A stretch of DNA of 32,000 bases. Origin: Candidatus Uzinura diaspidicola str. ASNER. Lineage in GTDB: Bacteria > Bacteroidota > Bacteroidia > Flavobacteriales > Blattabacteriaceae. Below the pieces are notes generated by a model, which ran no database searches, had not been told where the DNA came from, and worked only from the letters and a program-made list of their open reading frames with translations. The stretch covers positions 30,001 through 62,000 of the forward strand of contig CP003263.1 of assembly GCA_000331975.1 (NCBI GenBank). Direction: 5' to 3'. A program made the position numbers and the translations under genes. This document shows, piece after piece, positions 4,430 through 24,190 of the stretch (position 1 is the first letter of the stretch; each line of letters starts with the position of its first letter).

Positions 4430-5269
4430 ATGAAAATAGCTTTGCAAAAAAAAGGACGCCTTCATGAAGAATCTATTAATCTTCTTAAAGCTTGCGGGAT
4501 TAATTTCCCCTTAGATTTAAGTAAAGACAAACTTAAAATATCAACATATAATTTAGATATATTTTTTCTACGTGATGATGATATACCTAGCTATATTCAA
4601 GAAGGAGTAGCTGATATAGGTATAGTAGGAAAAAACGTTGTTTTTGAACAAGAAAAGAGCTTCTTAATAAAAAAACATCTAGGGTTTGGTTATTGTAGGC
4701 TTTCTTTCGCAGTTCCTAAAGAAAGCCTATATAAATCTTCGAAAGATTTTTCCGGAAAATGTATTGCAACCAGTTATCCTAACATTCTATTTAAGTTTTT
4801 AAAGGAACAGAACATCTGCTCTTATATTCACAAAATAAGCGGCTCTGTAGAGATAGCTCCAAATATCGGTGTTGCCGATGCAATTTGTGATTTAGTTAGT
4901 AGTGGAAGTACATTAGATTCTAATGATTTAAAAGAGATAGAAACTATTTTTTCTTCAGAAGCAGTACTTATTTGTCATCCTAAATCTAGTAGATTAGCAA
5001 AGAAACTTATTTTTCGTCTTCAAGCATTTAAAAGAGCCAGAGATAATAAATACCTCTTACTATTATTTAATGCTCCTAATAAAAAATTAGAAAAGATTAT
5101 TTCTTTTCTACATAAATCATGTAAAAGACTTCATAGAATTCCCAAAGCTGCTTTATGGACTTATATTCAAGTAATCGTACCAGCTTTTATTATCTGGAAT
5201 ATCCTAGACGAATTAAAAAGAAACAGTGTAAAAGATTTGGTGGTTCTTGAGAAAATGAGGGTTTTTTAA
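4430..5269 (+). CDS. hisG: ATP phosphoribosyltransferase, long form
   Basis: 279-aa ORF with N-terminus MKIALQKKGRLHEES, the DLVSSGSTL block and a C-terminal regulatory domain ending VVLEKM. Confidence 0.9.
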   Translation: MKIALQKKGRLHEESINLLKACGINFPLDLSKDKLKISTYNLDIFFLRDDDIPSYIQEGVADIGIVGKNVVFEQEKSFLIKKHLGFGYCRLSFAVPKESLYKSSKDFSGKCIATSYPNILFKFLKEQNICSYIHKISGSVEIAPNIGVADAICDLVSSGSTLDSNDLKEIETIFSSEAVLICHPKSSRLAKKLIFRLQAFKRARDNKYLLLLFNAPNKKLEKIISFLHKSCKRLHRIPKAALWTYIQVIVPAFIIWNILDELKRNSVKDLVVLEKMRVF

Positions 5270-5308
5270 AGGTAGAAAAAAAACAAGAGGTAAAAACAGC
5301 TTCCAAAA

Positions 5309-6316
5309 TTGAGAACAAAAGTTTTATTCATAAATAGTAACGAAACATTCGTTGATAAAGTTATTTTTTATCCCGGGATAATTACTTATCTCGGACGCAT
5401 AGTTTCTGAACTTGACTATGAATTAGTATTGGTTAGCAACCAAGTTAATTTAGGAACAGAAAGTTTTCCAAGAGTTCTTTTTCATGCAGAACATGACTCC
5501 ATCTTAAAAAGATTTGAAGGCGAAGGTATCCATTTATCTTCTATAGATTTCTATAAAGAAAACCATAATTCGGTAACCGAAATGTTACCGAGCTACTTTT
5601 CAAAAACTTATGATCGTTCTCAATCTTTTGTTATAGGTGATAGCATTATTCTGTTACCTCTAGATGGTAGTTATACTACAGAAGAAATAGCGTTACATCC
5701 TTCTTGGAAAAAAATTTACAATTTGCTTAAATTTGGTTTTAGTGAATTCTCTTCTAGACGAATAAGCAAAGAAACAGAGATACAAATATCTATTAAAATA
5801 AATGGCAAAGGAATTTCTGACATTCATACTGGGTATGGTTTTTTAGATCATATTCTTGATCAAATTTGCATCCATGCCAACATAGATTTAGGTATAAAAG
5901 TAAAAGGAGACGTTCATGTAGATGAACATCATTCTATTGAAGATACGGCTATTGCCCTTGGCATAGCCTTGTCAAAATCTTTGAAAGATAAGAGAGGTAT
6001 GGCACGATACGGATTTTTATTACCAATGGATGACATTTTAGTACAGGTAGCTCTAGATTTAGGAGGAAGAAGTAATTTAATTTGGAAAGCAGATTTTGAA
6101 AGAGAAAAAATAGGAGATATTCCTACAGAAATGTTTGCGCATTTTTTTAAATCTTTTTCTGATGTTGCCTATTGTAATCTTCATTTTCAGACAGAAGGCA
6201 ACAATGAACATCATAAAATAGAAGCTATATTTAAGGCTTTCGCCTATGTACTTAAAATAGCATTGACCCGTAATCATAATAACGAGCTATTACCTAGCAC
6301 CAAAGAAATACTATGA
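5309..6316 (+). CDS. hisB: Bifunctional HisB. The imidazoleglycerol-phosphate dehydratase domain is intact. The N-terminal histidinol-phosphatase (HAD) domain has degenerate catalytic motifs.
   Basis: 335-aa ORF with a TTG start. IGPD blocks are present: GYGFLDHILDQ, VDEHHSIEDTAIALG, ARYGFLLPMDD, NEHHKIEAIFKAFA. The HAD motif I DxDGT reads NSNET. Confidence 0.9.
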   Translation: MRTKVLFINSNETFVDKVIFYPGIITYLGRIVSELDYELVLVSNQVNLGTESFPRVLFHAEHDSILKRFEGEGIHLSSIDFYKENHNSVTEMLPSYFSKTYDRSQSFVIGDSIILLPLDGSYTTEEIALHPSWKKIYNLLKFGFSEFSSRRISKETEIQISIKINGKGISDIHTGYGFLDHILDQICIHANIDLGIKVKGDVHVDEHHSIEDTAIALGIALSKSLKDKRGMARYGFLLPMDDILVQVALDLGGRSNLIWKADFEREKIGDIPTEMFAHFFKSFSDVAYCNLHFQTEGNNEHHKIEAIFKAFAYVLKIALTRNHNNELLPSTKEIL

Positions 6317-6897
6317 CAGTAGTTATTATAAAATATCCCGCTGGAAATGTACAATCAGTAATTCTTGCTCTAAAACGTTTAGGAGTCCATCCATTACTTA
6401 GTGATCAAAAGGAAGTAATTAAAAGTGCAGATAAAATTATTCTACCAGGAGTAGGAGAAGCAAAATCCGCAATGAGATATTTGCGAAAAAAAGGCTTACA
6501 CGAAATTCTACCTTCTCTTAAACAACCTATATTAGGAATATGTCTTGGAATGCAATTACTTTGTAATTTTTCAGAAGAAAACGATACTATTTGTTTAGGT
6601 GTATTTGATATCAATGTAAAAAAATTCAACACCTTTATATACAAAGTCCCTCAAATTGGATGGAATACACTTTTTAATCTAAAAGGAAAGCTTTTTGAAG
6701 AAATGGGGGAAAACCCATTTCAATACTTTGTGCATAGTTATTATGTTCCTAATAGTTTATATACAATAGCCTGTTCAAGATATACATGTATTTTTAGTGC
6801 TGCTTTACAGAAGTACAATTTTTATGCAACACAATTCCATCCAGAAAAATCTTCTTTTGAAGGACAAAAAATTCTAAAAAATTTTATAAAACTTTGA
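6313..6897 (+). CDS. hisH: Imidazole glycerol phosphate synthase, glutamine amidotransferase subunit
   Basis: 194-aa ORF with the catalytic Cys block GICLGMQLL and the His/Glu block QFHPEKS. There is an ATGA overlap with the hisB stop. Confidence 0.92.
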   Translation: MTVVIIKYPAGNVQSVILALKRLGVHPLLSDQKEVIKSADKIILPGVGEAKSAMRYLRKKGLHEILPSLKQPILGICLGMQLLCNFSEENDTICLGVFDINVKKFNTFIYKVPQIGWNTLFNLKGKLFEEMGENPFQYFVHSYYVPNSLYTIACSRYTCIFSAALQKYNFYATQFHPEKSSFEGQKILKNFIKL

Positions 6898-7634
6898 AGG
6901 ACAAAAAATTTAAAATCATACCATCGATAGATTTAATAGATGGGATATGTGTAAGACTGACTCAAGGAGATTATTTACGCAAGGATCATTACAACAAAGA
7001 TCCACTAAAGGTCTCCTTATATTTCCAAGATATTGGAATTTCTAGATTGCATTTGGTAGATTTAGATGGAGCTAAATCTGGAAAAATTTCTCATTGGAGA
7101 GTTTTGGAAAAAATATCAAAAAATACTGATATCACTATAGATTTTGGAGGTGGAATTAAAAGGGACCAAGATATAAGAGTTGTTTTTGAATGTGGCGCTA
7201 CCATAGCAACAATAGGAAGTATTGCGGTAAAAAACCTTCAACTTATGAAAAAATGGATTAAGTTTTATGGTAGTAATAAAATATTTATAGGAATGGATGT
7301 AAACAACAAAAAAATTGCTATAAATGGATGGAAAAAAATGACAGATATTTACTACTGTCATTTTTTAAAAGAAACAATAAGTTCTGGAGTAGAAAATTAT
7401 TTTTGCACAGATATTTCTAAAGACGGCCTTTTATCTGGCTCCTCTTTGGAACTATATGAACTTATAATTACTACATATCCAAAAACAAAAATTGTTGCTA
7501 GTGGTGGAATAAGTAATTTTACAGAGATACAATATCTAAAAGATATTGGTTGCTACGGAATAATTCTAGGAAAGGCTCTTTATGAAAATAAAATCACTAT
7601 TTCAACCCTTAGAGAAATAATGAAAAAATGTTAA
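6894..7634 (+). CDS. hisA: ProFAR isomerase (1-(5-phosphoribosyl)-5-[(5-phosphoribosylamino)methylideneamino]imidazole-4-carboxamide isomerase)
   Basis: 246-aa ORF with a TTG start overlapping the hisH stop. It has IIPSIDLIDG, LHLVDLDGA and GGGI blocks and a (beta/alpha)8 HisA/HisF pattern. Confidence 0.9.
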   Translation: MKDKKFKIIPSIDLIDGICVRLTQGDYLRKDHYNKDPLKVSLYFQDIGISRLHLVDLDGAKSGKISHWRVLEKISKNTDITIDFGGGIKRDQDIRVVFECGATIATIGSIAVKNLQLMKKWIKFYGSNKIFIGMDVNNKKIAINGWKKMTDIYYCHFLKETISSGVENYFCTDISKDGLLSGSSLELYELIITTYPKTKIVASGGISNFTEIQYLKDIGCYGIILGKALYENKITISTLREIMKKC

Positions 7635-8380
7635 CGAAACGTATTATTCCTTGTTTAGATATAAAAGATGGAAAAACAGTAAAAGGCATTCGTTTTCAAC
7701 ATTTAAAGGAAGCAGGAGATCCTGTAAAATTGGCAATGTTTTATGCTAAAGAAGGTGCTGATGAACTTATATTTCTAGACATAAGTGCAACACAAGAAAA
7801 TCGTAAAACTTTAATTTCACTTGTACACAAAATTGCTCGTTATCTTTATATTCCTTTTACTATTGGAGGGGGTGTTACATCTTTAGATGATGTAGAAAGA
7901 TTGCTAAATGCAGGTGCTGATAAAATTTCTGTAAATACAGAAGCCTTTAAAAGACCTCAATTGCTCAATGAACTGGTAGAAAGATTTGGAAGCCAATGTA
8001 TAGTATTAGCGATAGATATTCAAATTCATAAAAATGAATGGTGGGTATATATTAATGGAGGACGGATAAAAACATCATACAAAGCATTAGACTGGGCAAA
8101 AGAAGCTGTTGAACGAGGTATTGGTGAAATTCTACTTACTTCAATGAATAACGACGGAACTAAGAAAGGATTTTCTATTGGAATAACTAGGACATTTTCA
8201 GAGAAACTTTCTATCCCTATAATAGCCTCCGGCGGAGCCGGAAATATGGAAGACTTTTACGAAGTCTTTAAAGTTGGTAAAGCAGATGCTGCACTAGCTG
8301 CTAGTATTCTTCATTCAGAGGTAATATCTATACGGCAAATCAAAAATTACTTGTCCAGTAATAAAATATCCATTAGATGA
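7628..8380 (+). CDS. hisF: Imidazole glycerol phosphate synthase, cyclase subunit
   Basis: 250-aa ORF with RIIPCLDIKDG, DELIFLDISAT, TIGGGV, LLTSMNNDGTKKG and ASGGAG blocks. It overlaps hisA by 7 nt. Confidence 0.95.
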   Translation: MLTKRIIPCLDIKDGKTVKGIRFQHLKEAGDPVKLAMFYAKEGADELIFLDISATQENRKTLISLVHKIARYLYIPFTIGGGVTSLDDVERLLNAGADKISVNTEAFKRPQLLNELVERFGSQCIVLAIDIQIHKNEWWVYINGGRIKTSYKALDWAKEAVERGIGEILLTSMNNDGTKKGFSIGITRTFSEKLSIPIIASGGAGNMEDFYEVFKVGKADAALAASILHSEVISIRQIKNYLSSNKISIR

Positions 8381-9039
8381 AAGCACCGTCTATAGACTCT
8401 ATTAATTTTAATAAGTCTCTTGATGGCTTAGTTCCAGCCATTATTCAAGACTCTGATACACTAAAAGTATTGATGTTGGGGTATATGAATGAGGAAACTT
8501 ATTTAAGGAGTTTACAAAGTAAAAAAGTTATTTTTTACAGTAGATCTAAAAAAAGAGAGTGGATAAAAGGTGAAGAAACTTCTCATTCTTTAGTCATTAA
8601 AGAAATTTTTATAGACTGTGATAAAGATACTTTGTTAATTAAAGTAATTCCTTTGGGGCCTACTTGTCATCTAGGTACAAATAATTGTTGGGGAGACATG
8701 AATGAGGAATGCTATAGTTTTTTTAGAACCCTTGAGAAAATTATTTTTTTAAGAAGAAAAATAGAAGTAGGTATTCATAAGTCTTATATTAGAGATCTCT
8801 TTGAAAGGAGTATGAATAAAATTCTCCAAAAAGTTGGAGAAGAAGCTGTTGAACTTATTTTAGAAGCTAAAGAGAATAACAAAGAACGCTTTCTTAATGA
8901 AGCAGCTGATCTATTATTTCATTATTTAGTATTGCTTCAAGCTAAAAATTATAATTTAAAAGATATTCTAGATATTCTAAAAAAAAGAAAAAAACTTAAA
9001 ACCCTATTTTTTTTTAAGAGACCAAAGTCTATTTTTTAA
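8377..9039 (+). CDS. hisI: Bifunctional phosphoribosyl-AMP cyclohydrolase / phosphoribosyl-ATP pyrophosphatase
   Basis: 220-aa ORF. The HisI part has GLVPAIIQD, FYSRSKK..W.KGE, DCDKD and GPTCHLG..NCW. The HisE part has KVGEEAVE and EAADLLFHYLVLL. There is an ATGA overlap with hisF. Confidence 0.9.
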   Translation: MKAPSIDSINFNKSLDGLVPAIIQDSDTLKVLMLGYMNEETYLRSLQSKKVIFYSRSKKREWIKGEETSHSLVIKEIFIDCDKDTLLIKVIPLGPTCHLGTNNCWGDMNEECYSFFRTLEKIIFLRRKIEVGIHKSYIRDLFERSMNKILQKVGEEAVELILEAKENNKERFLNEAADLLFHYLVLLQAKNYNLKDILDILKKRKKLKTLFFFKRPKSIF

Positions 9040-9634
9040 TAGCATAGCTAGTGTAAGAGGCCCAACTTACCAAAAATACTTTTAAAGTATACATCTCCAA
9101 CTAAATTACACCCAGAATCATCTTCCAACTTAATAATTACCCCAACAATAACAAATAACAACAGTTCCTTTAGAAATCATATCCGCTTTTAAAAATCTTG
9201 GTGTATAACTATGATAACTATGTGTTAGTGTGCTATTTCTAGGATTAGATTTACGGTACATAAGCAATACTTAGATTCTTACCTAGAATTACTGTATGTT
9301 TTCCTTTTGGATGGATAGAAAGCTTCTATACTCAAAGCCATTTTTACTATATTTAAAGTATGAATATCATCTATAGAATCACCTTCATTGAGAAATGCTA
9401 GGAGGTAAACCAACACTTTGACAGTCTTTTATTTTTACATATAGTATTATTTCCTACTAATACAGCTACTAAATACGGAGAACGAAATCCTACTATTTTT
9501 ATTTTATCTACTTCCCTAGCAATTTCTTCCCTCATATTTAACGCTAGTGTCTTACCATAAAGAATCTTTGTCATCCTGCTTGTCATCCTGCTTGTCATCC
9601 TGCTTGTCATCCTGCTTGTCATCCTGCTTGTCAT
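9040..9634 (-). pseudogene. folD: Decayed methylenetetrahydrofolate dehydrogenase/cyclohydrolase (folD) remnant
   Basis: The N-terminal 78-aa ORF reads ...MTKILYGKTLALNMREEIAREVDKIKIVGFRSPYLVAVLVGNN (FolD-like). Downstream minus-strand frames give LLAFLNEGDSIDDIH, VNLILEIAH*HIVIIVIHQDF and KLEDDSGCNLVGDVYFKSIF, interrupted by several stops and frameshifts. Only about 595 nt remain, against about 880 nt expected. Confidence 0.75.
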
Positions 9635-9648
9635 CCTGCTTGCCTGCT
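9569..9648. repeat. Perfect 12-nt tandem repeat TGTCATCCTGCT x6, followed by a degenerate 8-nt copy
   Basis: Read directly from the sequence. The copies are at 9569, 9581, 9593, 9605, 9617 and 9629. On the minus strand the unit is AGCAGGATGACA, which contains an ATGA start/stop overlap. Confidence 0.97.
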
Positions 9649-10386
9649 TAAATGTATAAATTGTTGTACAGAAAGTTGCTCAGCTCTTTTATCAAGAATT
9701 GGTATTTTATAAAAAGATTCAGAGAAATTCAAAGATTTCAGCGTATTGCGTAGTTTCTTTCGTCGTTGATTAAAGGATACTTTTACTATTTTAAACAATA
9801 CTGCATCATCCACCTTTTTGGTAACACCTGATTTTCTATGAAGACGAATTACAGAAGATTTTACTTTTGGATGAGGAAAAAAATAATTGTTGGGAACAGT
9901 AAAAATAGATTCTACTTCATAAAAAGCTTGTATAAGAACAGAGAGAATACCGTAAGTTTTGCTTCCAGCAGCAGAACGAATTCGTTCTGCGACTTCTGTT
10001 TGAAACATCCCAATTACTTCAGGGATAAATTTCCTATATTTCAGTAAATAAAATAAAATATTTGAAGAAATATTGTAGGGAAAATTGCCAATTAATGCAA
10101 AAGAAGATAACATAGGATTACATTGAAGAAAATCCATGTTAATGATACTATTTTTTAATGTAGGAAAGACTTTATGTAGATATTTTACTGATTCTGTGTC
10201 TATTTCAATAACAAAAAGATCATTAGTTCTATCTATAAGATATTGGGACATCATTCCCATTCCTGGTCCTAATTCAACTATAGAAGAATACCCTATAAAA
10301 GATAGGGTTTGAACAATTTTCTTAGCTATTTTTTCATCATGTAAAAAATGTTGACCTAAATATTTCTTTGGAAAAACTGTTAACAT
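9631..10386 (-). CDS. rsmA: 16S rRNA (adenine1518/1519-N6)-dimethyltransferase RsmA/KsgA
   Basis: 251-aa ORF with KKYLGQHFL, VELGPGMG and GNFPYNIS blocks. Its TGA stop lies in the repeat copy nearest the gene. Confidence 0.9.
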   Translation of the reverse strand: MLTVFPKKYLGQHFLHDEKIAKKIVQTLSFIGYSSIVELGPGMGMMSQYLIDRTNDLFVIEIDTESVKYLHKVFPTLKNSIINMDFLQCNPMLSSFALIGNFPYNISSNILFYLLKYRKFIPEVIGMFQTEVAERIRSAAGSKTYGILSVLIQAFYEVESIFTVPNNYFFPHPKVKSSVIRLHRKSGVTKKVDDAVLFKIVKVSFNQRRKKLRNTLKSLNFSESFYKIPILDKRAEQLSVQQFIHLSRQAG

Positions 10387-20645: not shown

Positions 20646-20785
20646 TTCTATATGAATTCTTTTAAAGTTAAGAATATTTTTCTTACATATCCTATTAATT
20701 TTACCATTGCACGCATAAATTTTATATAACTAATTATCAATGAAGTTCAGTACTTAACCTTGTTTTAATAACTTTTCTATAGAAG

Positions 20786-21340
20786 ATGAATAAAAAAATA
20801 AAATTATTTGTAAGGTTTTTTTTCCTTATTTCAACTTTTCTATATTTTTATAGCACAGGAAGGAAATATAGAAAATGGTTCTCTTTTATTTAAAAGAAAT
20901 TGTACTTCTTATCATTCTATTGACTATTGATCTTACTAAGAAACTAATTGGACCTCCTCTTTCTGAATTACAGAGAAAAGAAATATAAATTGGCTTCATA
21001 AAGATATTAAAGAAAAATAGAAACAACAGAAAAATTACTTGAAAAAGATTTTATAAAGTTCATTATTATTGGTTTTTCGATTCGAACCTATTGATAGATG
21101 GGATATACCTTATCCTTTTATACATAATTGAATTGCCCTTTAAGTATGATGGAAGGAAAATATATTGAAGATGGAAAAAACAAATATAAAGCCTTTAATG
21201 TAGGTTGCAATTTAAATATACGTCATTATTCAACGTATACTTTATCTATAGAGCTTATCATGGAGATATTAAAAAAATGGATAAATGGGTATAAATTATA
21301 TAGAGAATTCAGTGTTTCTAAAATGTAATTAAACTTGAAA
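20786..21340 (+). pseudogene. actA: Alternative complex III cytochrome c subunit (ActA-like) remnant
   Basis: A signal-peptide-like MNKKIKLFVRFFFLISTF is in one frame. The cytochrome c domain AQEGNIENGSLLFKRNCTSYHSIDY* is in another, with CxxCH mutated to CTSYH and a stop at 20928. A multihaem remnant FIYRAYHGDIKKMDKWV (CxxCHG changed to YRAYHG) lies at 21247-21264. Confidence 0.65.
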
Positions 21341-21469
21341 AAGTAAATAATATACATGAATTTGCGTGTATTACTATAGAAATTTATTTAAATATACCAA
21401 AGAAATATGAAATGAAGAAGAACAAATTGAGACATATAAAGGAAAGAACGTGATAGATCAAAAGGTCAT

Positions 21470-21990
21470 CATTTTAATTTGATAATTGTTTTCCTGTATT
21501 GGCTGTGGCAAAATTGCATGTTTTTGTAGTTGGAAAGAATGAAGAGTTGATCGTTATTAATATTAGCTAAACATGGTTTTTCTCAACATAGAATGTTCTA
21601 TGACACCTGAAATGTATTTTAATCCAATAGTTATTTTTCAGCCTGTGTCAACATTGTTCCAATGCTCCATGCGAAACAATATGTCCGGTAGGTGCAATAT
21701 CTCATGGAGGACACAATACGAGATGCTAATAACTGTCCTTATAAAGTTCGTAGTTTTAATTGGTTTAAGAAATAATGATATTGAAAGAATGATATATAGT
21801 CCTGATGTTGTATTAAGAAGTAGGGGTGTAATGGAAAAATGATTTAAAAGAAGGAAGAAAATTAAAAGATGAAGAATTTCAGCCTTCTTGTACTAAGGCA
21901 ATAATTTTTGGAGATATTAACGATAATGAAAGTAAAATTTACGAGAAGATTAAAGAGAATAGAAGTTATAACCTTCTAAATTTTCTTCTT
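21470..21990 (+). pseudogene. actB: ACIII Fe-S subunit (ActB) remnant. Only the ferredoxin-like C-terminal domain is recognisable.
   Basis: Recognisable blocks are CIGCGKIACFCSWKE (21495), CQHCSNAPCETICPVGAISH (21646), NNCPYKVRSFNWF (21728), SPDVVLRSRGVMEK (about 21798) and IIFGDINDNESKIYEKIKENRSYNLL (21901). They are spread over three reading frames with stops. The roughly 700-aa molybdopterin-like N-terminal domain is essentially absent. Confidence 0.75.
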
Positions 21991-21992
21991 TT

Positions 21993-22745
21993 ATGAAGAC
22001 CCTTTCAGCATTTTTATGGGGTTCTATAATAACTGGAATAGGTGTTTGGGGGGTAAATAGAACTATAAATTGGGCATGGGATATTACTAATTTTGTATGA
22101 TGGGTTGGAATTGTTCATATTGTTCAGGAATATTGATTTATGCAGTACTTTTAGCGTCTCTCAGCAGAGGGACAATTTTTTCTGTGATTCAGGCCTTATT
22201 ATGTCCTCTTTTATGTTATTGCGATAAGATACTTCTTTTTCAATATCTACTGTCTTTTGATTCCTTGGCAATTATTTGAAGAATTATCTCTTGTATTAGC
22301 AGGATTATGCGCTCCTTTTTGTTTCTTTTGATTTTGCAACTTCAATTATTAAACTCTCCTTATTTTGTAGATGGAGCGGCACAGGGGTTGCATCTTTTAG
22401 ATGTCGTTAGGAAAGTTCTTAGAAGATTAGTTCCTGGTATTCATGTAGCCCCTTTGAAGATTTTACTTATTTTTCTACAGGGCCTTTTTGGTGGGCTTCA
22501 TTATTTGTAATGTACTTATTCCTCAATTGTTTAAGAAGGTCATATTATTTTATTAATTTTGGAATGTGGTTTAAACGTTTTGATATTATTGTTATAAATC
22601 TAAGTCATGATTATGCCATATTGTACTGAATTTTTACCTTCTTTTATAGATATAGGAATTTTTATAGGTAGTTTTTTCTTTGTACTATATCTTATTTATG
22701 CCCGTACTTTTCCTGTAATTGCTCAATCATAGTTAAAAACTATAG
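21993..22745 (+). pseudogene. actC: ACIII NrfD-like membrane subunit (ActC) remnant
   Basis: MKTLSAFLWGSIITGIGVWGVNRTINWAWDITNFV is followed by TGA at 22098-22100, where homologues have Trp, and then WVGIVH. Later blocks are GLCAPF...FDFATS-like, GPFWWASLF and FGMWFKRFDIIVINLSHDY (22561-22620). There are several frameshifts. Confidence 0.75.
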
Positions 22746-22762
22746 TAAAATAACAAAAAAAG

Positions 22763-23100
22763 ATGAGAAAGAAGACTACTACAGTGATTTATAGAAAATC
22801 CCGGTTCCATTATTTGGAACTGCTTTAGTATATATTACTTGATTGGCCTCAAGATATTGGTGGAAAAATATTGGTGGAAAAAGCCTGCCTTAATCTTAAT
22901 TTCCCATCCTTTATTCCTATTATATTTTAACTCACTATATTTTTTTTTATGTGTATAACCTACTTGATAATCTTCTCCAAGGAGCCAAATCCTCGAAGAT
23001 TAAAAAGTTTGTGAATAAAGATAAGGTGCCAAAGAAGTGATTATAAAAGAGTTTCCTTCATGAATATTATATATATTATAGTGATTTATAAGAAATTATA
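22763..23100 (+). pseudogene. actD: ACIII DUF3341 subunit (ActD) remnant
   Basis: MRKKTTTVIY... is followed by LDWPQDIGGK (22841-22867) and, after a frameshifting 14-nt tandem duplication, NFPSFIPIIF (consensus DWP.NIGGKP...PAFIPVTFE). The remnant is truncated. Confidence 0.55.
22854..22881. repeat. Perfect 14-nt tandem duplication ATATTGGTGGAAAA x2
   Basis: Read directly. Copy 1 is 22854-22867 and copy 2 is 22868-22881. It sits inside the actD remnant, and its length is not a multiple of 3. Confidence 0.95.
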
Positions 23101-23470
23101 TACGAGAAGAGTTTATATGACAGAGATATATTATTCTATTCAGATACGTCCTTTTGGATATTTCACGTACGGAAAACCAAATACTTACCTATACTTTACC
23201 TAATTTTAATAAAGGATTAGGTTGCATCATTAAAAATTACTGAATCACCTTTAGATTACTTTGATATTGAAAGAGGAAAATCCATGTATAAAATAAATTG
23301 CGCTATTTGTCATGGAGATAATGGACAAGGAGAATTAGTTAATACTGAAAAAATTCTTGGTGTTCTAGACTATAGGCAGTGTATGGGAAAAAGGGGATAT
23401 ATGGTTCAGAACTAATACAAGAATACCTATGGTAAATAGCAGAATATGTAGATTAAAAAATATGTTCCTA
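23100..23470 (+). pseudogene. actE: ACIII monohaem cytochrome c subunit (ActE) remnant
   Basis: SPLDYFDIERGKSMYKINCAICHGDNGQGELVNTEKILGV has an intact CxxCH at 23299-23313, but it is flanked by stops and frameshifts. No full-length ORF is present. Confidence 0.6.
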
Positions 23471-24144
23471 AATAATCATAGGGCTTTTCTCCAATAGTTA
23501 TTGGACAAACAGTTTATTTTCACCCTTCATATCATCAAACTTTTTTAGATAAAGCACATAATCGTCCCGCTAGGATAGCGTTTTATATGGGTAAAATATT
23601 ATTTCACTGGGATTTCTTTAGGCGCATTCTAGTAATTCAATATATAGGGGAATTATAGTAAGTAATGTGATAGAAGGGATTATCACTTTTCCTTATTTTC
23701 TTAATATTTCTTATACCTTCTTACCTCTTCTATATATTACTGTATGGACATTTTTTATGTTGTGGATGAGTACTATATCAGTATTATTTATTTCTTTTTT
23801 TTCTATTAGGTGGAAGTGGGGAATGAGTCTAGAATCTTTTGGATGGTATGTATTAGTAAGTTATTGGGTGTGTTTTTGCTCTTAACAAAGTCATAGTATT
23901 TACTACTAGTTTATGTAATGGATATATTTGTGGTTTTCACAATTATTACTTTATTGGTATGGAAATATTCCTGAAGAAAGGTCCTATTTTATTAAACGTG
24001 CATTTAATCTTTGATGATTCCTATGATTTTAGGAATTCCATTTTTAGGACACATGATAGATATATATTTTTGGCGTTTACTATTGTAGGCAGCTTATTTA
24101 TTTTTATTGTCTATAGGAGTATTAGAAGCTTTCAACTGCCCTAA
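23470..24144 (+). pseudogene. actF: ACIII membrane subunit (ActF) remnant
   Basis: The fragments are FGWYVLVSYWVCF (consensus FGWYVFSGMW) and WIYLWFSQLLLYWYGNIPEERSYFIKR (23919-24000; consensus YLWFSQFMLIWYSNIPEE.TYF). They are in different frames with stops. ORFs 23667..23885 and 23959..24144 are pieces of it. Confidence 0.7.
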
Positions 24145-24190
24145 CGACTAAAGAAACCCACTATGTAATGAAAGTGCAATTGTATATTTT

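Follow-up and report, generated by a model that had tools for sequence, protein, structure and literature searches.

In bifunctional HisB, a HAD-type histidinol phosphatase domain (HisB-N) is fused to an imidazoleglycerol-phosphate dehydratase (IGPD) domain. HisB-N works via a phospho-aspartate intermediate and uses four catalytic HAD elements (DxD, DxxxD, Lys, and Thr/Ser); in Bacteroidetes, it naturally lacks the CxH/CxC zinc cap (PMC9798254). Among insect symbionts with incomplete histidine pathways, the last step in Portiera aleyrodidarum has been suggested to be provided by the host or its diet (PMC4438442; bioRxiv 10.1101/043349). Walczuchella monophlebidarum lacks hisC and hisD (PMC12188211; PMC11064573), and Uzinura is reported to have "essentially the same" amino acid potential (PMC3971599). 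Here, we examine the hisB gene in a 32,000-nucleotide stretch of the Candidatus Uzinura diaspidicola ASNER genome (contig CP003263.1, positions 30,001 to 62,000; the whole stretch is referred to below as the window). Uzinura ASNER is a 263-kb flavobacterial symbiont of armored scale insects. Its HisB is probably a single-function enzyme, that is, a working IGPD preceded by a catalytically dead HAD relic that is still translated, foldable, and being slowly trimmed.

The GenBank name of the protein (AGC66823.1) is imidazole glycerol-phosphate dehydratase/histidinol phosphatase, and it shares 47 to 51% identity with HisB of free-living Bacteroidota. Its whole-protein score against NF003937 (bifunctional HisB) was 336.9 bits, below the cutoff of 443; by its fusion to a C-terminal IGPD in one polypeptide, its location in a his operon, and its position beside hisH, it matches the NF003937 proteins. 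Pfam recognized only the IGPD domain (PF00475, amino acids 174 to 314). For comparison, we used a clade set of 29 HisB sequences, composed of the window protein and 28 close relatives from Uzinura-like lineages, and a free-living set of 82 Bacteroidota HisB sequences; loci are labeled L and HisB proteins P. A scan of genome contigs yielded 79 genomes of free-living Bacteroidota but only a single one from the clade, L002, and ASNER was not among them.

The N-terminal half of Uzinura HisB has lost, in register, DxD, the Lys, and the Asp that ends DxxxD, three of the four elements of HAD catalysis, and the Ser/Thr position of motif II is the only one kept. The register was set by a MAFFT alignment of E. 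coli HisB-N, five free-living Bacteroidota HisB sequences, and the 28 close relatives, and then by one of 120 sequences. The register of motif I is secure, because no gap interrupts the alignment of the L-F-I strand that precedes it or of the motif II strand. In this register, F-I-D-R-D-G-T corresponds to F7-I8-N9-S10-N11-E12-T13, with NSNET encoded at 5333-5347. N9 (AAT, 5333-5335) occupies the position of the Asp nucleophile and N11 (AAC, 5339-5341) that of the second Asp of DxD, matching E. coli D9 and D11; each codon is a single G-to-A change away from an Asp codon. The DRDGT columns are 100% identical in the 82 free-living sequences, and the DxD of the TIGR01261 family is absent from the Uzinura protein. 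Behind V15, there is a gap, which measures 13 columns when P0013 (the HisB of the related locus L001) is the reference and 9 columns when the closest relatives are.

The other motifs are degraded to different degrees. In motif II, S43 lies in the Thr/Ser column; the D-G of N-Q-D-G, which is invariant in free-living sequences, is replaced by V46-N47, and the following L-G-T is kept. G49-T50-E51 is invariant within the clade (29/29 sequences). Motif III, T-R-K-P, corresponds to N85-H86-N87-S88 (5561-5572), with the catalytic Lys replaced by N87, and all 29 clade members share a deletion of 4 to 7 residues just upstream of it. Motif IV, G-D-R-I-T-D, reads G110-D111-S112-I113-I114-L115; its first Asp (D111) is kept and its second is replaced by L115, so that DxxxD is lost. 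Approximately 30 to 45 residues beyond motif IV, which form a strand, a helix, and a variable linker in the active enzymes, are deleted.

A preliminary description of this DNA, made from the letters alone, had proposed that both Asp residues of motif I were Asn (FINSNET), that approximately 10 residues were missing behind the motif, that the motif III Lys (R-K-P) was replaced, and that motif IV read GDSIIL. The alignments bear out all four statements: no Asp residues appeared in register at N9 and N11, the missing stretch measures 13 or 9 columns depending on the reference, R-K-P has become H86-N87-S88, and of the two Asp residues of GDRxTD only the second is gone. It had also counted the missing Zn/Cys-rich segment among the losses. 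The segment is indeed missing, but this is not diagnostic, since functional Bacteroidota HisB-N lacks it as well (PMC9798254). The comparison with the curated HisB-N model that the description had called for gave 50.2 bits against a TIGR01261 cutoff of 140 (E = 1.9e-13), indicating a homologous sequence that is not a member by score. The N-terminal 151 residues also match the E. coli HisB-N structure 2FPR (E = 4.5e-9), and the region is therefore a diverged homolog rather than an unrelated sequence. From the residues lost, we infer that the HisB-N half is catalytically dead.

Structure prediction suggests that the relic can still fold. An AlphaFold2 (AF2) model built from the 120-sequence alignment had a mean predicted local distance difference test (pLDDT) value of 81.3; most IGPD residues exceeded 90, and block means in the N domain ranged from 49 to 88. 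The N domain was modeled as a HAD-like core of alternating strands and helices. A Foldseek search with the model retrieved 2FPS/2FPR (E = 8e-6; approximately 128 aligned positions; target-normalized template modeling [TM] score, 0.58) and also GmhB. A second AF2 run with only the 29 clade sequences had a mean pLDDT of 38.8, low even in IGPD, and its model was unusable. On the basis of the first model, it is plausible that the HAD fold has been retained in the dead N domain.

The C-terminal half is an intact IGPD. It scored 184.7 bits against the PF00475 gathering threshold of 27, and none of its eight His/Glu metal ligands (H181, H207, H208, E211, H278, H301, H302, and E305) is missing; they make up the two HHxxE motifs and the two further His ligands that characterize IGPD. 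These eight residues are invariant across the 120 sequences, in agreement with the preliminary description, which had noted that the His/Glu metal-binding blocks were retained. The modeled domain matched IGPD structures by Foldseek with E = 1e-19 and target-normalized TM scores of up to 0.93 (plant IGPD). From these features, the C-terminal half is predicted to be a functional dehydratase.

The motif losses are combined differently among the 29 lineages. Motif I reads N/K-x-N-E in the subclade of the window and Y/F-x-Y/S/I-G-T in another subclade. Several lineages close to the window keep the R-K of motif III, which the window itself has lost, and G-D-R of motif IV is kept in some lineages. 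In a tree based on concatenated proteins (1,265 residues), the clade and both subclades had 100% support. P0013 was placed either at the base (61%) or as the sister of the second subclade (the P19 group; 39%), and the count of independent motif I losses depends on which placement is right. The mosaic is consistent with an early release of the active site from selection, after which random hits would have struck each lineage independently. Where conservation in free-living sequences is at least 95%, the window protein still has the conserved residue in 29/52 N-domain columns (56%) and in 83/92 IGPD columns (90%). Columns in which gaps and residues are mixed within the clade number 111 in the N domain versus 1 in IGPD. 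The N domain is 147 to 177 residues long in the clade versus a median of 191 in free-living sequences, the Uzinura domain being 42 residues shorter than this median.

Both halves of HisB are under selection, to different degrees. For three independent close pairs pooled, the ratio of nonsynonymous to synonymous substitution rates (dN/dS) by the NG86 method was 0.45 (95% confidence interval [CI], 0.32 to 0.67) in the N domain and 0.13 (0.09 to 0.19) in IGPD, and a maximum-likelihood (ML) codon model gave 0.31 and 0.083 for the same pairs. In the subclade that inherited the dead motif, the NG86 values were 0.56 (0.41 to 0.78) and 0.18 (0.13 to 0.25). The N-domain ratio is thus 3 to 4 times that of IGPD, and no bootstrap replicate of the pooled close-pair sets reached 1. 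As a neutral null, real N-domain sequences were evolved with a substitution matrix derived from 1,754 4-fold sites of the operon, with only stop codons rejected. The null dN/dS averaged 1.05 to 1.12 with a minimum of 0.59 in 150 simulations; the observed values of 0.45 to 0.56 lie below all of them, although the CI of the subclade value extends up to 0.78 and so reaches the lower tail of the null. Because the observed dN/dS lies below this frame-preserving null, the N domain is more constrained than frame preservation alone explains. Near-invariant N-domain columns, with at most one change, number 15 versus 3.5 expected, and amino acid identity of the N domain is 49 to 52% across the deepest splits of the clade.

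The preliminary description had concluded that only one half of the protein was under purifying selection and had suggested estimating dN/dS for each half. The estimates support the relaxation of the N half, but not its freedom from selection: the domain is relaxed yet evolving nonneutrally. Homologous to an active family, stripped of catalytic residues, and under purifying selection, it qualifies as a pseudoenzyme domain. Its ancestral site-by-site constraint pattern has dissolved, with the per-site variability in the clade and in free-living sequences correlated at a Spearman coefficient of 0.13 (p = 0.14) in the N domain versus 0.53 (p = 4e-15) in IGPD. Within the clade N domain, the entropy is 1.04 in the columns invariant in free-living sequences versus 1.27 in the others, so that the former vary almost as much as the latter.

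Two further yardsticks were toned down or set aside. The plain contrast in dN/dS between the halves is not proof of relaxation: at matched IGPD identity, the ratio of N-domain to C-domain divergence is 2.0 to 2.4 in the 82 free-living HisB sequences with intact motifs and 1.95 to 2.2 in the Uzinura clade. A faster N domain alone is therefore not evidence of decay, because functional free-living HisB shows the same approximately 2-fold ratio. Intergenic DNA was informative as a neutral reference at the distance between the window and P04, where nucleotide identity is 83% in the N domain versus 62 to 76% in intergenic DNA (in line with residual constraint on the domain), and ambiguous in the closest pairs, where one spacer was as conserved as the N domain. 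Within the operon, hisG had an NG86 dN/dS of 0.37 to 0.54 in most pairs (0.18 in one), which is akin to that of HisB-N and the highest of the operon in most pairs; the other his genes (hisH, hisA, hisF, and hisIE) had values of 0.02 to 0.32, indicative of purifying selection.

The gene order around hisB, which the preliminary description had overlooked, provides a context for the loss. Free-living Bacteroidota have the order hisG-hisD-hisC-hisB (e.g., L008), with hisD and hisC occupying approximately 2.3 kb at the position of the short hisG-hisB spacer of Uzinura (Table 1). Neither hisD nor hisC is present between hisG and hisB in the window, and hisC is missing from all retrieved clade loci that include sequence upstream of hisB, L001 among them. 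These loci read RNaseG-hisG-hisB-hisH-hisA-hisF-hisIE without hisD, with the exception of L001, from a 320-kb relative. There, a 313-amino-acid truncated hisD lies between hisG and hisB at 8964-9905 (+), without hisC; this stump covers positions 81 to 321 of the 393 of TIGR00069, its C-terminal part being gone. P0013 is the only relative whose HisB still reads FIDRDGT, although its motif III Lys and first motif IV Asp are gone. L001 thus resembles a halfway point in this decay. A search with the L001 stump as the query against 5.8 billion proteins, a database that includes the 28 clade HisB sequences and ASNER HisB, revealed no other clade HisD among the 120 matches listed, and the best matches beyond the clade were from a Geopemphigus symbiont and Blattabacterium (52 to 54% identity). 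With hisC and hisD missing, the phosphatase step is flanked by two steps that are absent from the symbiont, and their loss would explain why the phosphatase became dispensable.

Table 1. Coordinates of hisB, its domains and motif remnants, and the other his genes in the window
Feature	Position	Strand	Evidence
hisB ORF (open reading frame), 335 amino acids, TTG start	5309..6316	+	AGC66823.1, 100% identical
Degenerate HAD (HisB-N) domain, amino acids 1-149	5309..5755	+	TIGR01261, 2FPR, AF2/Foldseek
Parts of the HisB-N domain: core, amino acids 1-129; conserved C-terminal helix/linker, amino acids 130-149			
Motif I remnant FINSNET	5327..5347	+	Alignments and sequence
Motif II region VLVSNQVNLGT	5426..5458	+	Alignments
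Motif III remnant ENHNS	5558..5572	+	Alignments
Motif IV remnant GDSIIL	5636..5653	+	Alignments
Imidazoleglycerol-phosphate dehydratase domain, amino acids 150-335	5756..6313	+	PF00475, ligands, Foldseek, dN/dS
hisG, ATP phosphoribosyltransferase	4430..5269	+	Profile scores, dN/dS
hisG-hisB spacer, 39 bp	5270..5308	.	Window gene order
hisH	6313-6897	+	
hisA	6894-7634	+	
hisF	7628-8380	+	
hisIE	8377-9039	+	

We infer the following course of events. The ancestor of the clade would have lost hisC and then hisD, leaving the intervening conversion of histidinol-phosphate to histidinol without purpose, and selection on the phosphatase active site would have lapsed. Individual lineages would then have lost different motifs through point mutations of the usual AT-biased kind and through short in-frame deletions. 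The HAD relic may persist because it is translated first and in the same frame as the essential IGPD, for which stop codons and frameshifts in the relic would be lethal. A badly misfolding N terminus would probably harm the fusion protein as well, so that selection would still disfavor such changes. Approximately half of the amino acid changes would still be purged, and only in-frame trimming would pass (from 191 to 147 to 177 residues). The symbiont's own pathway appears to end at imidazole-acetol phosphate, with three enzymatic steps still to go before histidine. These steps (aminotransferase, phosphatase, and dehydrogenase) might be carried out by host enzymes, by a promiscuous symbiont enzyme (e.g., of the AspC type), by another partner, or not at all.

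Several points weigh against this account of a dead passenger beside a working IGPD. The loss of phosphatase activity is deduced from sequence alone, and the predicted HAD fold is partly driven by the free-living sequences in the alignment. For the remainder of the ASNER chromosome, the absence of hisC is taken from the literature and from the lack of a clade homolog, and a diverged hisD may rank below the 120 matches listed. In the closest pairs, nucleotide conservation of the N domain is no higher than that of one intergenic spacer, and the codon position profile is nearly flat (e.g., identities of 0.935/0.935/0.929 for P16-P21); the pooled dN/dS may thus understate how nearly neutral the recent evolution of the domain has been. 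Finally, a ratio of N-domain to C-domain divergence equal to that of free-living HisB fits a working domain as well as it fits a passenger.

This last point bears on an alternative that we consider unlikely but worth weighing, in which the dead HAD domain has acquired a noncatalytic job that explains its conservation, such as folding or assembly of the IGPD 24-mer, binding of an intermediate for hand-off or export, or regulation of IGPD. A dN/dS value clearly below 1 after inactivation, a divergence ratio equal to that of functional enzymes, and the invariance of G49-T50-E51 in 29/29 sequences would all be expected of such a domain, as would residues that are conserved specifically in the clade and variable in free-living HisB (T3, K4, E51, R55, V56, F97, K141, F142, and E146). 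However, many lineage-specific in-frame deletions trim the domain, including one of 13 residues unique to ASNER, and its strands are barely more conserved than its loops (entropy, 1.11 versus 1.31). Moreover, the dN/dS of hisG, a presumably ordinary neighbor in this operon, is comparable (0.37 to 0.54 in most pairs), and no partner or ligand can be named. A wider and quite unlikely scenario combines such reuse with a pathway split between organisms at imidazole-acetol phosphate: Uzinura would make and export this intermediate or a derivative, and the last three enzyme steps would fall to an unrecognized partner or to the host, which might have acquired genes resembling hisC, hisD, or a phosphatase gene by horizontal transfer; the dead HAD domain would be reused, for example, to bind or hand off the phosphorylated intermediate or to stabilize the IGPD particle.

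Pure neutral decay, in which the N domain is a de facto pseudogene held only by the frame of IGPD and its dN/dS below 1 is an artifact of AT bias and short sequences, is improbable. The flat codon position profile in close pairs, the disappearance of the family's per-site constraint pattern, and single pairwise dN/dS estimates whose CIs often span 1 are what it would predict; against it, none of the 150 null replicates gave a value under 0.59, ML and YN00 put dN/dS at 0.31 to 0.34, lower than NG86 does, and neither the 49 to 52% amino acid identity at the deepest splits nor the excess of near-invariant columns would be expected. A phosphatase still active with noncanonical residues, or a misalignment or sequencing artifact, is extremely unlikely, even though D111 (a Mg-binding Asp of motif IV), S43, and the GenBank name remain, given that the flanks of motif I align gap free, the same state is found in 28 independent assemblies, HAD chemistry needs an Asp nucleophile for the phospho-aspartate intermediate (PMC9798254), and both the supplier of the substrate (HisC) and the consumer of the product (HisD) are missing. 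The reading retained is that of a functional IGPD carrying a dead HAD relic.

Several further features of the operon and its relatives were recorded. The non-ATG start of hisB (5309-5311 in the window) is kept clade-wide, with TTG followed by (R/I/K)-T-K-V-L-F-I in 13/13 clade genes for which DNA was available (the window, L001, L002, and L082-L091). The hisB stop codon is overlapped by hisH. The C-terminal histidine feedback domain of HisG (approximately 4990-5266) scored below threshold with both PF08029 (18.2 versus 23.5) and TIGR03455 (25.7 versus 40). At L090 (P0021 lineage), hisG at 5099-5945 is split into ORFs of 52 and 98 amino acids, and hisB to hisIE are intact; this is either a pseudogene, in which case the whole pathway is starting to go there, or an assembly error in the Logan contig. 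ASNER HisIE has 220 amino acids versus 207 to 211 in every relative, the extra part being a Lys/Phe-rich C terminus, as if the stop codon had shifted.

Aminotransferase genes lie a few kilobases from the his operon in two relatives (L084, 13356-14540 [-]; L090, 13723-14907 [-]). Considered as surrogates of HisC, they proved to be of the AspC type rather than HisC: both best matched aspartate aminotransferase models, with approximately 350 bits, under the equivalog cutoffs. Such an AspC-type enzyme, if promiscuous, is a candidate to fill in for the missing HisC step.

Elsewhere in the window, a fragmented folD pseudogene (9016-9574, -) lies in the 591-bp hisIE-ksgA spacer (9040-9630). Compared with the intact FolD of L001 (13782-14666, minus strand), amino acids 1 to 67 are found at 9574-9383 (54% identity, E = 2e-17), amino acids 153 to 167 at 9319-9275, and amino acids 176 to 288 at 9267-9016. 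In a 3.5-kb region (20646-24190), stop codons interrupt both strands so often that no open stretch exceeds 94 codons, and the GC skew turns positive there. An Rfam search of this region gave no match, and its sole protein signal was a cytochrome c CxxCH fragment at 23221-23412 (+) (PF13442, 23.8 bits; PF00034, 22.4 bits). The region is probably a graveyard of decayed genes. The coding density of the genome has been reported to be 86.5% (PMC4438442).

Metabolic reconstructions that trust the annotated name credit Uzinura with a phosphatase step that is almost certainly impossible for the symbiont. The his genes down to imidazole-acetol phosphate are under clear purifying selection despite the truncated pathway, and no cosymbiont is known from armored scales. 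The question is thereby sharpened to who completes histidine synthesis in these insects or, failing that, what purpose the truncated pathway serves. The 29 lineages also constitute a replicated natural experiment on the decay of one domain of a fusion protein beside an essential partner. Tiny symbiont genomes are well known to lose genes and domains, and dead-enzyme domains are likewise familiar; we found no description of a dead HisB-N within an otherwise functional HisB in the literature searched.

Compared with known systems, Uzinura HisB retains the architecture of bifunctional HisB (E. coli and free-living Bacteroidota; NF003937; 2FPR-2FPX), namely, the HAD-IGPD fusion encoded in a his operon directly before hisH. 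It differs in the absence of DxD, Lys, and the second Asp of DxxxD, in scores below the family cutoffs, and in that hisC no longer precedes it. To judge from its conserved fold and metal ligands, it is now predicted to be functionally equivalent to the monofunctional IGPDs (HisB of Mycobacterium, Staphylococcus, and archaea; plant HISN5), unlike which it keeps a translated N-terminal relic of 149 residues. Portiera, the whitefly symbiont, also has a tiny genome that keeps the early his genes and lacks histidinol phosphatase activity and hisD (PMC4438442; bioRxiv 10.1101/043349). In contrast to Portiera, in which the phosphatase is reported absent, Uzinura retains a dead copy inside a fusion gene; furthermore, hisC is not among the missing genes listed for Portiera (PMC4438442), whereas Uzinura appears to lack it. 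Walczuchella, the flavobacterial symbiont of giant scales, is related to Uzinura and shares the lack of hisC and hisD, but it has enterobacterial cosymbionts that are said to supply missing genes. The N domain resembles pseudophosphatases, for example, those of the STYX type, in having mutated catalytic residues and a dN/dS value below 1 (for the concept, see PMC8907265). STYX-type proteins are free-standing regulators of another fold family with demonstrated noncatalytic roles, whereas the retention of the HAD domain in Uzinura would be explicable by its fusion to IGPD alone.

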